Part shown: one piece after another, positions 18,731 to 22,888 of the stretch | Position numbering within the stretch: the first letter of the stretch is position 1 | How the letters are laid out: each line of letters begins with the position of its first letter | Source of the DNA: a virus | Direction: 5' to 3' (one strand) | DNA: 64,000 bases | Virus record (IMG/VR): IMGVR_UViG_3300030109_004085 | Coordinates: 19,882 to 83,881 of that record | Position numbers and translations under genes: made by a program | The notes under the pieces: generated by a model | Database searches by the model: none | What the model was told of the DNA's origin: nothing | What the model saw: only the letters and a program-made list of their open reading frames with translations

Positions 18731-18773
18731 GCGACTGTGAGGTTATGATACCCCACAGCCGCCGGTTTGTCAA
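18731..18773 (-). promoter_or_regulatory. Sigma70 promoter embedded in a terminator-like hairpin downstream of recA
   Basis: TTGACA-17 nt-TATCAT; the -10 lies in the loop of GCGGCTGTGGGG/CCTCACAGTCGC, followed by TTTCT. Confidence 0.65.
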
Positions 18774-18784
18774 CCCTTATTTAC

Positions 18785-19909
18785 TTATTCTTCTTTATCT
18801 ACGTCGTAGAAATCGCCTGCGTCTCCTTCGCGATTATCAAACTTCTTGATAATCTCCTCATCCATAATCTTAAATACACGATTTCTAAACTTATCATCTT
18901 CCAACTTATCTAACCAATGGGCTGACTGGAACTTTTCTTCTGTGCCATCTGCATAAACTAATGAATACCAAGCTCCTGCTTGCTTCAAATTGTCGGAGAT
19001 CTTGATTGCCTCCAACCAACTTTCCCTATCTTGCACCCCGATGTCTTCTGAGCCCCAAAGAATTTTGAAGGCGCAGTTTCTACCGGCAGTTCCAAATCGT
19101 GACTTCTCCAACTTAACTTTTACTTCTGAACCAATGCGGAAGCCACTTTCATCTACAATAAAGGCAGCCTTTGCCTTTCTTCCTGTCAGCCAAATGCGCA
19201 GGGAGTACACATAATGCATAGACTTGCCGCCCGGAGTGATATAGGGCGTGGTCATAGCAATAATACGCGCATTTGGACCCTGTGGGATATTCGTCTTTAA
19301 CTGATTAAGAACCAAGAACGCAGACTGTGTGTTTGCGATTGGAACCGTCAGCTTTGACATTCCCTTTGATAGAACACGAGCCTTGACGGCCATCGTAGAG
19401 TTCGGGTTGAAATCTCCCTCTACATCTGAGACCGTTGGAGTCAGAGCAAGTGAATCCCAAATGAATAGGGTTCGGGTCGCTCCTGAATCCAAAACTGCCT
19501 CAACAGTCTCAAGAACATGTTCCACGCTCTGTGCCTGAACATAAATAAGGTTTTCTAAATCACATCCCGTACGCTGTAAGAAGCTCGGGTCAATAGCAGA
19601 CTCTGCGTCCATATAAACAACATTCATACCCATCTTCTGGGCGTTTGCAGCAGTCTGCGCAGCCATAAAAGACTTTCCTGTTGCTTCAAGTCCAGCAATC
19701 TCCGTAAACTTGCCGACCGGGATTCCAGCCAACTGTCCTCGGCAAATGATAGAGTCAAGCCAGCGCGAACCGGTTGGAATCCATTCTTTTACCTCAGTTG
19801 GATTTTCTTGATTTAGATTGTGGGCACACTCCACCCCTGAAGTCTTATTAATGAGACTTCGTAGACCGTCAATCGAAATCTTGCCAGCCTTTGATTTACT
19901 CTTCGCCAT
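18785..19909 (-). CDS. recA: RecA/UvsX recombinase
   Basis: IPTGS, GLEATGKS, DAESAID, WDSLA, NQLK, TPGG. Confidence 0.9.
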   Translation of the reverse strand: MAKSKSKAGKISIDGLRSLINKTSGVECAHNLNQENPTEVKEWIPTGSRWLDSIICRGQLAGIPVGKFTEIAGLEATGKSFMAAQTAANAQKMGMNVVYMDAESAIDPSFLQRTGCDLENLIYVQAQSVEHVLETVEAVLDSGATRTLFIWDSLALTPTVSDVEGDFNPNSTMAVKARVLSKGMSKLTVPIANTQSAFLVLNQLKTNIPQGPNARIIAMTTPYITPGGKSMHYVYSLRIWLTGRKAKAAFIVDESGFRIGSEVKVKLEKSRFGTAGRNCAFKILWGSEDIGVQDRESWLEAIKISDNLKQAGAWYSLVYADGTEEKFQSAHWLDKLEDDKFRNRVFKIMDEEIIKKFDNREGDAGDFYDVDKEE

Positions 19910-20250: not shown

Positions 20251-20781
20251 CTAGTCGAACGTTAGGGTGCCGTTTGCAGTCTGGACAGAGACATTAAAGC
20301 CGGACACAAAACTATCTACATCAAAATACTTGAAACGACCGTCAGTGTCAAGCTCTGCGTTAAGAATATCTCCAAAACGAACCTTGACCGCGGTGGAAAT
20401 ATCACAACGGCCGCGCTTGTAGTCATACTGCTCGGTTGAATACTCTAGAGAATACTCTCCCTCGTAGATGGTCTCCACAAGACGTTCAGTAATGAAATCC
20501 TGGAAATACTCCTCTCCTCGCTCATACTCATCAAGCTCATTATTAGCACGCATCTCATTAAGAATATCGTTGCCTTCACTTGGCTCGCCGTAGGTGCTGT
20601 ACACCGGAACACCAGATGCAAGCAGTCCTGCAAGCATACTAGCAGTCGCCGTCTCAGCAACCGAATCAGCAACATACCCATCATTGATATGCCACACATC
20701 ATTACCCTCTGTGAAAGAGAGGGTTACAAAACTATCCTCTGACATCTCCAGCTTCTTTAGCTGGTTAATAAAATCACTCAT
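20251..20781 (-). CDS. Hypothetical acidic protein
   Basis: 176-aa ORF with GGGAG SD. Confidence 0.75.
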   Translation of the reverse strand: MSDFINQLKKLEMSEDSFVTLSFTEGNDVWHINDGYVADSVAETATASMLAGLLASGVPVYSTYGEPSEGNDILNEMRANNELDEYERGEEYFQDFITERLVETIYEGEYSLEYSTEQYDYKRGRCDISTAVKVRFGDILNAELDTDGRFKYFDVDSFVSGFNVSVQTANGTLTFD

Positions 20782-20809
20782 TTTAAACTCCCTTTGTTAA
20801 GTGAAAAAT

Positions 20810-20839
20810 GGGGCACCTGTAACCCGTGCCCCCCTGCGG
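20810..20839 (-). ncRNA. Structured motif copy 1 (also terminator-like)
   Basis: CCGCAGG-GGGGCAC-GGGTTACAG-GTGCCCC then ATTTTT. Confidence 0.6.
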
Positions 20840-20849
20840 TTGGTAGAGT

Positions 20850-21038
20850 TTACCTAGCGTTCTTAGTCTCTTGGACCTCAACGCGAAGCTCTTGAGCAAG
20901 CGTCTTTACTTCTTGCATAGCCTTGCGAACACGAGTTCCGGCGGCATTGTTTCCAGTGCCGAAGAACTTCTCGTGATCTTCGCGAGTCTGTTCAAGAAGC
21001 GTAATCAGCGTCTCAAGTCGGTTCGTTGTAGTAGTCAT
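20850..21038 (-). CDS. Histone H1-like Hc1 family nucleoid protein
   Basis: KFFGTGNNAAGTRVRKAMQEVKTLAQELR matches the Hc1 core GNKAAGTRARK. Confidence 0.75.
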   Translation of the reverse strand: MTTTTNRLETLITLLEQTREDHEKFFGTGNNAAGTRVRKAMQEVKTLAQELRVEVQETKNAR

Positions 21039-21208
21039 AACTCTTCCTTTCTAAATTGTGAGACCCCTGTAACCCCGGGCCTCCCTGCGGAGGGGATGTT
21101 TTCCAATTTTGCCTGAACTGCAAGGACTTGCTTTTCAAGGTATTTTATCATTCTACGGTAAGAATGCAACTCCTTGACAAGAAAGTCTTGTTCTTGCTCC
21201 ATGGACAT
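21035..21208 (-). CDS. 57-aa ORF reading through hairpin copy 2 (not in ORF track)
   Basis: MSMEQEQDFLVKELHSYRRMIKYLEKQVLAVQAKLEN...; stop overlaps the Hc1 start (ATGA). Confidence 0.5.
   Translation of the reverse strand: MSMEQEQDFLVKELHSYRRMIKYLEKQVLAVQAKLENIPSAGRPGVTGVSQFRKEEL
21060..21090 (-). ncRNA. Structured motif copy 2
   Basis: CCGCAGG-GAGGCCC-GGGGTTACAG-GGGTCTC; compensatory changes relative to copy 1. Confidence 0.6.
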
Positions 21209-21210
21209 TT

Positions 21211-21987
21211 TTACAGAGAACCCAACTCTGCGAATGCGGCATCGACAGAGTTAGTCTCACTGTCGCTGTTCTTATTGCCGTACTTCGTGGTCTCACTGCT
21301 AATCGCCTCTGGATCCTCGACCTGCGAGTTAATAAAATTATCAAGCATCGTTTGGACATCAGAAGTCGACTTGCGCTCAAATAGTCCCCCGAATTCGGGA
21401 ATACCATCAAGAAGCTCAGCGCACTTATCTGGAGTTAAATCCTCACAGAGAGCGGATGAACGTCGTCGTGGGACCAACTTAGTCTGGGGGAACGACGCTC
21501 CTGGGGGCTTACCGTAAGTAAGAGTCAGATCAGTGCCTGCCTCCGTATCGGTAATATCACCGTACTCAGGGTTGAGCACGAGAGAAAGAAGGTTTTCGTA
21601 AGCCATCTTGCCATAACCCCAGATACGAACTCCGAGATTTTCCTCGCCGCGGACCATCACCGGGGAGAAGAAACGCTGACGGACGAAGAGAGACTTCGCA
21701 GTCTTCTTGGAATGTTCGTCGTTGTTGTTTACACCCTCACGCCATAGCTGAGAAGCAAAATCGCACACAGGACAGTCATCACCGAAGTTACGCTTCGGAC
21801 AAAGGAAGCCGCCCTTTTCTACATTGTAATGGAAATGCATTTCCTTGAAGGGGTCTCCATCAGCAGTCGGAACAATACGAATGTCCTGATCACCTTCTGA
21901 AGGCCGCCAGAAAACGGAATCTCCACCTTTTCCCTCACCTCGCAAGGCTGAGAGCTTTTCTCGCATTTTGTCTAGATTAATACCCAT
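21211..21987 (-). CDS. Single-stranded DNA-binding protein, gp32-like
   Basis: FWRP, IRIVP, CPK...CPVC Zn site, IWGYGK, YGDITD...G.DL, acidic tail. Confidence 0.85.
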   Translation of the reverse strand: MGINLDKMREKLSALRGEGKGGDSVFWRPSEGDQDIRIVPTADGDPFKEMHFHYNVEKGGFLCPKRNFGDDCPVCDFASQLWREGVNNNDEHSKKTAKSLFVRQRFFSPVMVRGEENLGVRIWGYGKMAYENLLSLVLNPEYGDITDTEAGTDLTLTYGKPPGASFPQTKLVPRRRSSALCEDLTPDKCAELLDGIPEFGGLFERKSTSDVQTMLDNFINSQVEDPEAISSETTKYGNKNSDSETNSVDAAFAELGSL

Positions 21988-22021: not shown

Positions 22022-22888
22022 TCAGCTAATATCCTGATCGTCTAAAAGTTTGTTAATATATTGTACCACAGAGGAATACCGAATGCAATAACAATATTTC
22101 TGCTCGTAACTCGTTCTGAACACACCATACGATACATTCTTCCCCGTGTCAAGCCGAGACTTGACAAAGTTGTTGATTTTTCTGAACAGAGTGCCGTCAT
22201 TCTTCAGGTCGTCCTCTCCAATACCATAGTAGTATACCACGTCCTTCGTGTTTGTCAAGGGATAAAACCACTTTTCCTTATACTGAGTGTAGTCATCGCC
22301 CTCCAGTGTTACTGCGCCTATGGTGCAGATACGCGATAATTCAGACGGAGTGATAAAATTACCAATTACAGGTTCTGAATGTCTAAACACATTAGTCATA
22401 TGAATAATATTTACGATTGCTTGGTTCAGAGTGTCATAATAACCAATAATCGACATATCACCAATGCTTCGCTCAATGTAAGCGTTATTAACCATAATAA
22501 TTTGCTCCAACATACCCGAACGAGCATATTCCTGCAACACAGAGGATACAATTTTCTCTTGCTTCTTCTGAACCTCGGACATAATCGAGAGGTCGCCCTC
22601 AATATACAAAACAGTCAGTCTGTTCTTTTGAAGTTGCTCCAACAGTCGTAGTGAGCCGCCAGAAATCTTACCTGCGCCAGCAATAACAACCAATACATCC
22701 TCATCTTTAAACTTTAGCTTCCTCTTAAGATCCGGGAATGAACTATCGTACTCTTCGTGGTTCTTTTTAGCTTTAATTGTGATATCAGCGTCTGGGTTGG
22801 CATCGATACCATAAGTTTGGTATTGCGGAAACTTTGAGAAAGCCTTCGCTATGTTGCAACCAGCCTTGCCAAGGCCAACCACGATCAT
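22022..22888 (-). CDS. Divergent tubulin/FtsZ-superfamily protein
   Basis: VVGLGKAGCNIA loop, IDAN, AGAGKISGG in place of GGGTG(S/T)G, IIMVNN, YDTLNQAI; start MIVVG via ATGA overlap. Confidence 0.65.
   Translation of the reverse strand: MIVVGLGKAGCNIAKAFSKFPQYQTYGIDANPDADITIKAKKNHEEYDSSFPDLKRKLKFKDEDVLVVIAGAGKISGGSLRLLEQLQKNRLTVLYIEGDLSIMSEVQKKQEKIVSSVLQEYARSGMLEQIIMVNNAYIERSIGDMSIIGYYDTLNQAIVNIIHMTNVFRHSEPVIGNFITPSELSRICTIGAVTLEGDDYTQYKEKWFYPLTNTKDVVYYYGIGEDDLKNDGTLFRKINNFVKSRLDTGKNVSYGVFRTSYEQKYCYCIRYSSVVQYINKLLDDQDIS

Follow-up and report, generated by a model that had tools for sequence, protein, structure and literature searches.

Gene context of the two hairpins

The stretch of DNA analysed here (the window, 64,000 nucleotides) is included in an 83.9-kb IMG/VR viral contig with an estimated completeness of 46%. 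The minus strand is the coding strand of every gene around the two hairpins described below. The region begins with the gene for a gp32-type SSB (21211..21987, minus strand; Pfam gp32, E 6.5e-13; PHROG 1192, E 1e-20), which is followed on the same strand by hairpin copy 2 (21060..21090), by the gene for an Hc1-like histone H1-type protein of 62 aa (20850..21038; Pfam PF07432, E 7e-21) and by hairpin copy 1 (20810..20839). Hc1 is an accessory cassette placed between two hairpins. Its start codon lies 21 nt past copy 2, and the stem of copy 1 begins 17 nt past its stop codon. The next gene, o176 (20251..20781, minus strand; from the ORF list), starts 28 nt past copy 1 and encodes a protein of 176 aa that has neither an assigned function nor a match in Pfam or PHROG; it is a conserved neighbour in 69 loci. 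Two tiny ORFs separate o176 from the gene for a UvsX/RecA-type recombinase (18785..19909, minus strand; Pfam RecA, E 1e-37; PHROG 97 UvsX-like, E 2.5e-52), which forms the distal end of a variable interval. The Hc1 protein has 152 relatives in viral contigs, and orthologues of copy 2 are present in 80 of 81 Hc1 loci. Hc1 itself is missing from many phages that bear the hairpin.

A small coiled-coil ORF of 57 aa, cc57 (21035..21208, minus strand; from the ORF list), lies between gp32 and Hc1. It begins 3 nt past the gp32 stop codon, and its end overlaps the start of Hc1 (ATGA). Its frame stays open through copy 2 in the window phage, and its homologue in a related locus, L006, stops inside the hairpin. 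Some relatives (L006, L007, L008, L056) share a conserved N-terminal part of ~40 aa; in Pfam the protein gave only sub-threshold coiled-coil matches, and in PHROGs no match. A coding explanation of the repeat was considered and rejected, as the hairpin is 3' of a stop codon in most loci and indels in the loop shift the frame. The two copies also differ by a one-base indel in the loop, which alters the reading frame, so that what is conserved in the repeat is the nucleotide sequence and not a peptide.

Sequence and fold of the two copies

Copy 2 reads CCGCAGG / GAGGCCC / GGGGTTACAG / GGGTCTC from flank (21084-21090) through 5' arm (21077-21083) and loop (21067-21076) to 3' arm (21060-21066), and has no U-tract. 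Copy 1 reads CCGCAGG / GGGGCAC / GGGTTACAG / GTGCCCC (flank 20833-20839, 5' arm 20826-20832, loop 20817-20825, 3' arm 20810-20816) and is directly followed by ATTTTT, an A + U5 tract (20804..20809, minus strand) that resembles the tail of a terminator. The initial annotation had described two hairpins bracketing the Hc1 gene, with a U-tract at copy 1 alone, and the sequences it gave were reproduced exactly, on the minus strand. The stem differences that it listed between copy 1 and copy 2 are also correct: one pair changes from G-C to A-U, one from A-U to C-G and one from G-C to G-U.

The two short hairpins fold as drawn, with -15.0 and -14.6 kcal/mol, and the opposite strand of copy 2 fails to form this hairpin. 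Across relatives the consensus is an element of ~31 nt with a single-stranded 5' flank CCRCAGG, a G+C-rich stem of 7 bp and a loop of 9-11 nt, (R)GGGNNA(Y)YAG. A degenerate pattern for this motif matched two sites in the 64 kb of the window, both of them the known copies. Shuffled sequences gave a mean of 0.02 sites, and two or more sites occurred in none of 100 shuffles. A covariance model recovered copy 2 (61 bits, E 5e-15) and copy 1 (54 bits, E 3.5e-13) and no others across the whole 83.9-kb contig.

Covariation of the stem and conservation of loop and flank

Relatives were collected as 80 viral contigs through a search with the Hc1 protein and 120 more through a search with the motif. In the resulting set of ~200 viral contigs the stem is paired in 100% of cases and covaries while loop and flank stay nearly constant, which bears out the covariation seen between the two window copies alone. 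The alignment held 98 distinct copies, and the 7-bp stem was paired in all 686 of its 686 cells. Compensatory changes were found at four of the seven stem pairs, among them A-U to C-G in 41 copies and C-G to U-A in 17. When the register was slid as a control, pairing never rose above 55%. One stem pair is G-U in 47 of the 98 copies, where the opposite strand would have A-C mismatches. Because G-U pairs are common and copy 2 in its complementary form does not give the hairpin, the constraint lies on the gene-sense strand, which points to an element acting at the RNA level.

The same structure is present in a second sub-clade, whose gp32 is ~40% identical to that of the window. Here 196 of 196 cells were paired, three pairs showed compensatory changes, and the element followed directly after gp32 in 52 of 52 loci. 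The hairpin was absent where gp32 relatives were at 25-32% identity.

Pairwise identities were compared over 36 non-redundant Hc1 loci. The loop is 95-96% identical and the 5' flank CCRCAGG 93-97%; the stem arms, always paired, reach 74-88%. Identity is 53-67% in the 8 nt on each side of the element and 50% at fourfold-degenerate sites of Hc1. Conservation of loop and flank exceeds even that of the non-synonymous positions of the neighbouring gene. Loop and flank are therefore under strong sequence selection, and the earlier proposal that they are kept beyond the need of an ordinary terminator is upheld by the contrast between 93-97% and ~50% at fourfold-degenerate sites.

Two further pairings are compatible with the fixed residues. 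An inner G-Y pair of the loop is GC in 94 copies and GU in 4, with one-sided variation only; going by the sequences, it could close a GNNA-like tetraloop and shrink the loop to 4-5 nt. The CC(C) of the flank could also pair with GG(G) of the loop in an H-type pseudoknot, where two C-G pairs are possible, both invariant and hence uninformative, and the third position pairs in 57% of copies. The loop G residues are compatible with either the flank pairing or the inner loop pair.

Home position of the hairpin after gp32

To define the usual position of the element, 140 non-redundant regions downstream of gp32 were sorted by gene order. The commonest layout, found in 29 distinct loci, is gp32, hairpin, uvsX. 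Other layouts contain one to three additional genes with a further hairpin between each, for example gp32>hairpin>o67>hairpin>uvsX, gp32>hairpin>Hc1>hairpin>o176 and gp32>hairpin>o67>hairpin>Hc1>hairpin>o176. Of 226 hairpin instances, 124 have the gp32 stop codon as the nearest one upstream. When contigs of 148 kb (82% complete) and 165 kb (91% complete) were scanned with the covariance model, all copies lay in the gp32-uvsX interval. Copy number ranges from one to four per phage, with two to three strong matches in contigs of 64-165 kb.

The ancestral position of the hairpin is directly after gp32, in phages without Hc1. The initial annotation had taken the repeat for an unnamed cis-acting element of an SSB-Hc1 operon, with protein binding, processing or antitermination as candidate functions. 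An unnamed structured element on the sense strand is indeed present, but it is not a device linked to Hc1, because its commonest position is after gp32 and it occurs in Hc1-less phages. Hc1 has a hairpin on either side because it belongs to the accessory cassettes of a hyperplastic interval in which hairpins mark the junctions.

The inserts of the gp32-uvsX interval include Hc1, o67, an FKBP isomerase, a GmrSD_N-like nuclease, a HATPase_c_3 protein, a LAGLIDADG homing endonuclease and Dam-type methylases. Loci such as L005, L021, L002, L130 and L170 illustrate this hot spot for accessory genes; the HATPase_c_3 protein is MORC-like. A 450-aa protein without a Pfam family occurs at several positions of the interval.

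Junctions and exchange of cassettes

Comparison of close relatives allowed single exchange events to be read from the junctions. L006 has exactly one unit more than the window, consisting of a hairpin and o67. The left flank of window copy 2 matches that to the left of the first hairpin of L006, and its right flank matches that to the right of the second. Similarly, L016 and L025 differ by a 1.3-kb GmrSD_N-like cassette, present in L016 between two identical 30-nt hairpins, and in L068 the same cassette is found after gp32 and not after Hc1, again between two identical hairpins of the local type. The cassette gene (DUF262-type, 410 aa) occupies 260-1630 in L016 and 10-1390 in L068, counted from the gp32 stop codon. 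Judging from these junctions, the GmrSD_N-like cassette seems to have been inserted recently, the target hairpin being duplicated in the process.

The hairpins flanking Hc1 were also compared across genomes. Similarity was 0.889 between upstream copies, 0.857 between downstream copies and 0.80 between upstream and downstream copies, and judged by these values the hairpins on the two sides of Hc1 are long-established positional orthologues. No excess likeness of the two copies within a genome was found (0.802, against 0.796 for copies of different genomes; 985 of 5000 permutations reach it), so exchange between the Hc1-flanking copies is not frequent. Concerted evolution of these copies, considered as an alternative, was not significant by permutation. 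As shown by the junctions above, recombination between copies moves single-gene cassettes into and out of the gp32-uvsX interval, because the ~31-nt element is nearly identical between phages; each cassette is consequently bracketed by two hairpins. Hc1 in the window is one old cassette of this kind.

U-tract, spacing and promoters

The presence of a U-tract depends on what follows the hairpin. At least five T in the 8 nt after the hairpin were found in 72% of copies before uvsX, 37% before o176, 2% before Hc1 and 0% before o67, against a background of 9%. The last hairpin of an array tends to a terminator-like form and the inner ones do not. The lack of terminator features at inner copies is consistent with expression of promoterless cassettes by read-through.

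The distance to the upstream gene is held tightly. Among 226 copies, 77% have a stem that begins 14-17 nt past the upstream stop codon, irrespective of the gene there, and there is a sharp lower limit at 14. With its 7-nt flank, the element would begin just past the expected front edge of a terminating ribosome. On its 3' side, the hairpin is 14-35 nt away from the next start codon (median 24, 189 copies), which places it just 5' of the Shine-Dalgarno (SD) sequence.

A promoter in or after the hairpin has no room, and aligned tails inspected by eye contain no conserved hexamers. The lone match to a promoter consensus near either copy, TTTTCA-16-TAAAAT (20807-20780), cannot serve o176 because its second hexamer runs into the o176 start codon. 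Near-consensus sigma70 promoters, TTGACA-N16/17-TATxxT, were seen on the minus strand at 22231-22258, 22124-22152 and 18745-18773, within or at the end of upstream genes and on the coding strand. The pair in 22124-22258 is the probable source of transcription of gp32 and of the cassettes that follow.

Both gp32 and Hc1 are covered by metatranscriptome contigs; being assembled contigs, these show neither RNA ends, strand nor level, and stretches that they leave bare carry no information. One contig of 151 nt, assembled from an RNA library (X19, record 18, 20985-21135), runs across copy 2, with DNA carry-over possible.

Pairing outside the main stem was also considered. The AAACUCU that follows the Hc1 stop codon could form a helix with the SD region of o176, GGGAGUUU, around copy 1 (window 20776-20852, minus strand). 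This long-range helix was rejected as a conserved feature: 77% of cells are paired in 43 relatives, with little covariation, and it is outside the RNAalifold consensus. In the second sub-clade (L149, 1725-1790, minus strand; alignment A4) a conserved UCUCCA after the 3' arm can pair with the uvsX SD, UGGAGA. The 6-bp hairpin so formed overlaps the main stem by 2 nt and is a possible translation switch for uvsX in that sub-clade.

Searches for known families, partners and hosts

No match in the window reached the gathering thresholds of Rfam (release 15), and the element is uncatalogued. A permissive Rfam search of 20700-21300 returned chance-level matches alone (E above 3), and ARAGORN found neither tRNA nor tmRNA. 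No RegB homologue was found in the window's contig, which is incomplete. RegA and CsrA homologues were absent from the window's contig and three larger relatives, all incomplete, and the RegA model was also blank in control genomes. No tyrosine recombinase (PF00589) was detected in four contigs, one of them 91% complete, with all control genomes scoring.

Among 50,697 phage records no DNA match to a cultured relative was found, and the best gp32 protein matches were below 35% identity; there is hence no annotated homologue of the element among cultured phages. A search of 185,579 genomes with the pattern returned five matches. Four were checked against the window proteins and are phage-like pieces within MAGs of unrelated taxa, so that a host cannot be named. 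One locus, L212 (CP070664.1, 'candidate division WOR-3 bacterium bin77 chromosome', a 2.8-Mb MAG; locus 1300-2840), has the order gp32, hairpin, uvsX with 60-71% protein identity to the window. This segment may be an artefact of binning or assembly, or a hint to the host.

Comparison with described systems

The closest described system is the promoter-early stem-loop (PeSL) of T4-type phages (Arbiol et al. 2010, PMC2839356; Comeau et al. 2014, PMC4122927). Like a PeSL, the hairpin is a short conserved intergenic stem-loop just before an SD sequence and start codon (here at 14-35 nt), and it sits in a hyperplastic region at points where single accessory genes are gained, lost or swapped, as in the window and L006 and in L016, L025 and L068. 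Recombination between copies is the proposed mechanism. The resemblance is that of a junction, and the hairpin lacks two of the features that define PeSLs, the promoter and the spread over the genome. PeSLs carry a sigma70-like -35/-10 promoter between stem-loop and SD (PMC4122927, Fig. 3 legend), for which none fits here, and they are many across the genome, whereas the hairpin has one to four copies in the gp32-uvsX interval only. In addition, the PeSL stem-loop sequence is loosely conserved, while loop and flank of the hairpin are nearly invariant across deep divergence.

An intrinsic terminator or intercistronic stabiliser is likewise a G+C-rich stem soon after a stop codon, with a U-tract at many copies, and the placement of the hairpin suits 3'-end formation or protection from 3' exonucleases. 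The differences are the strong sequence selection on loop and flank, the loop of 9-11 nt and a U-tract that is dispensable and depends on position. Intrinsic terminators are expected to have loops of 3-8 nt, typically 4 nt in T4 (PMC2988022), so that a 9-11-nt loop on a 7-bp stem of -15 kcal/mol is long for a terminator, unless the inner G-Y pair closes it to 4-5 nt.

The arrangement also recalls the attC sites and cassette arrays of integrons, in which hairpin repeats separate promoterless cassettes of one direction and the content varies among close relatives. It differs in that no integrase was found in four contigs, attC core sites are not conserved, and a single hairpin is conserved where no cassette is present. 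In size, attC sites are 57-141 bp and the hairpin is 31 nt. Lastly, T4 gene 32 has an autoregulatory operator made of a 5' pseudoknot and an unstructured leader (PMC535899, PMC3014915). Both are conserved structured RNAs with a physical link to gp32 in a large lytic phage. The operator of T4 is upstream and acts on translation initiation, whereas the hairpin lies past the stop codon of gp32 and is found again behind other, unrelated genes. In the window, the gp32 leader of 34 nt contains no copy of the hairpin.

Proposed function and alternatives

These results suggest an account to which we give about an even chance: the hairpin would be the 3'-end hairpin of the gp32 message, a terminator or stabiliser whose loop and flank are read by a factor, and which has been reused as a cassette boundary. 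Its home position is the 3' end of the gp32 cistron, and the repeats of the window are copies of that stem-loop. There it would form or protect mRNA 3' ends. A copy with a U-tract, as before uvsX and weakly at window copy 1, would act as an intrinsic terminator. A copy without one, such as window copy 2, would be read through and serve as an intercistronic barrier or stabiliser uncoupling the gp32 message from the accessory genes. Since loop and flank are invariant, some factor that reads their sequence is implied. A point against the terminator or stabiliser role is that a plain terminator or exonuclease barrier needs no invariant loop and flank. Termination, moreover, cannot be the conserved function, because the copies that lack a U-tract (copy 2 and nearly all those before Hc1) are equally conserved.

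It is very improbable, and disfavoured, that the hairpins are ordinary intrinsic terminators with loops and flanks kept alike by accident, through recent shared ancestry or recent transfer. Such terminators would have the G+C-rich stem of -15 kcal/mol, the U-tract of copy 1 and that of 72% of copies before uvsX, but the 93-97% identity of loop and flank against ~50% at fourfold-degenerate sites is kept while gp32 falls to 40%. The stems change with compensation around constant loops, copies lacking the U-tract are no less conserved, and elsewhere in the genome intergenic regions do without this hairpin. A translational operator or leader of the next gene (Hc1, o176, o67 or uvsX) is a minor possibility, in which a phage or host RNA-binding protein on loop and flank would set translation or 5'-end stability. 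All copies are 14-35 nt (median 24) from a start codon and just before the SD, an invariant loop and flank on a covarying stem is the usual sign of RNA hairpins bound by protein, and the AAACUCU of the window and the UCUCCA of the second sub-clade can pair with the SD regions of o176 and uvsX, in the first case around copy 1. On the other hand, the downstream genes are mutually unrelated and a reason for one common operator is not evident; the distance to the upstream stop codon (14-17 nt) is tighter than that to the downstream start; the outer stop-to-SD helix is 77% paired with little covariation and absent from the RNAalifold consensus; and no RegA or CsrA homologue was found.

An element that is mainly a DNA or single-stranded DNA recombination site, attC-like and kept for the capture and exchange of promoterless cassettes behind gp32, is improbable. 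It would explain an array of promoterless single-gene cassettes in the same direction with hairpin repeats between them, the occurrence of one cassette at different repeat sites with identical copies on both sides, and indels of exactly one repeat-plus-gene unit. Against it, four contigs contain no tyrosine recombinase although controls were positive, and the core GTTRRRY is not conserved, with GGGGATACAG-type loops having no GTT. The element is also equally conserved in many single-copy, cassette-less phages, for which a capture site alone is no explanation, and the position-dependent U-tract and fixed distance from the stop codon point to RNA. The operator and attC-like roles are possible, and less well supported than the terminator or stabiliser account.

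One extension of these ideas is put forward tentatively, with the balance against it. The hairpin may be a docking site that a phage or host RNA-binding factor, maybe gp32, reads sequence-specifically and through which the stability or translation of the cistrons behind gp32 would be set. If this were true, a gene placed between two copies would be wired at once into replication-phase expression, and the element would in effect be a self-contained 'plug-in socket', open to accessory and defence-related genes, that needs neither a promoter nor a recombinase of its own.

Few non-coding sequences of these large marine phages, a widespread and uncultured group, are conserved as strongly as the hairpin, which is missing from the catalogues of RNA families. 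It is an exact sequence marker of a hot spot of accessory-gene exchange, whose genes include a histone-like protein, a methylase, a chaperone-type isomerase and nucleases. With it, the notion developed for PeSLs, that regulatory repeats serve as recombination points, reaches a promoter-less element in phages outside the classical T4 relatives. From the constancy of loop and flank, recognition of this RNA by a protein is predicted, and the pair might serve as a small module for the control of expression.
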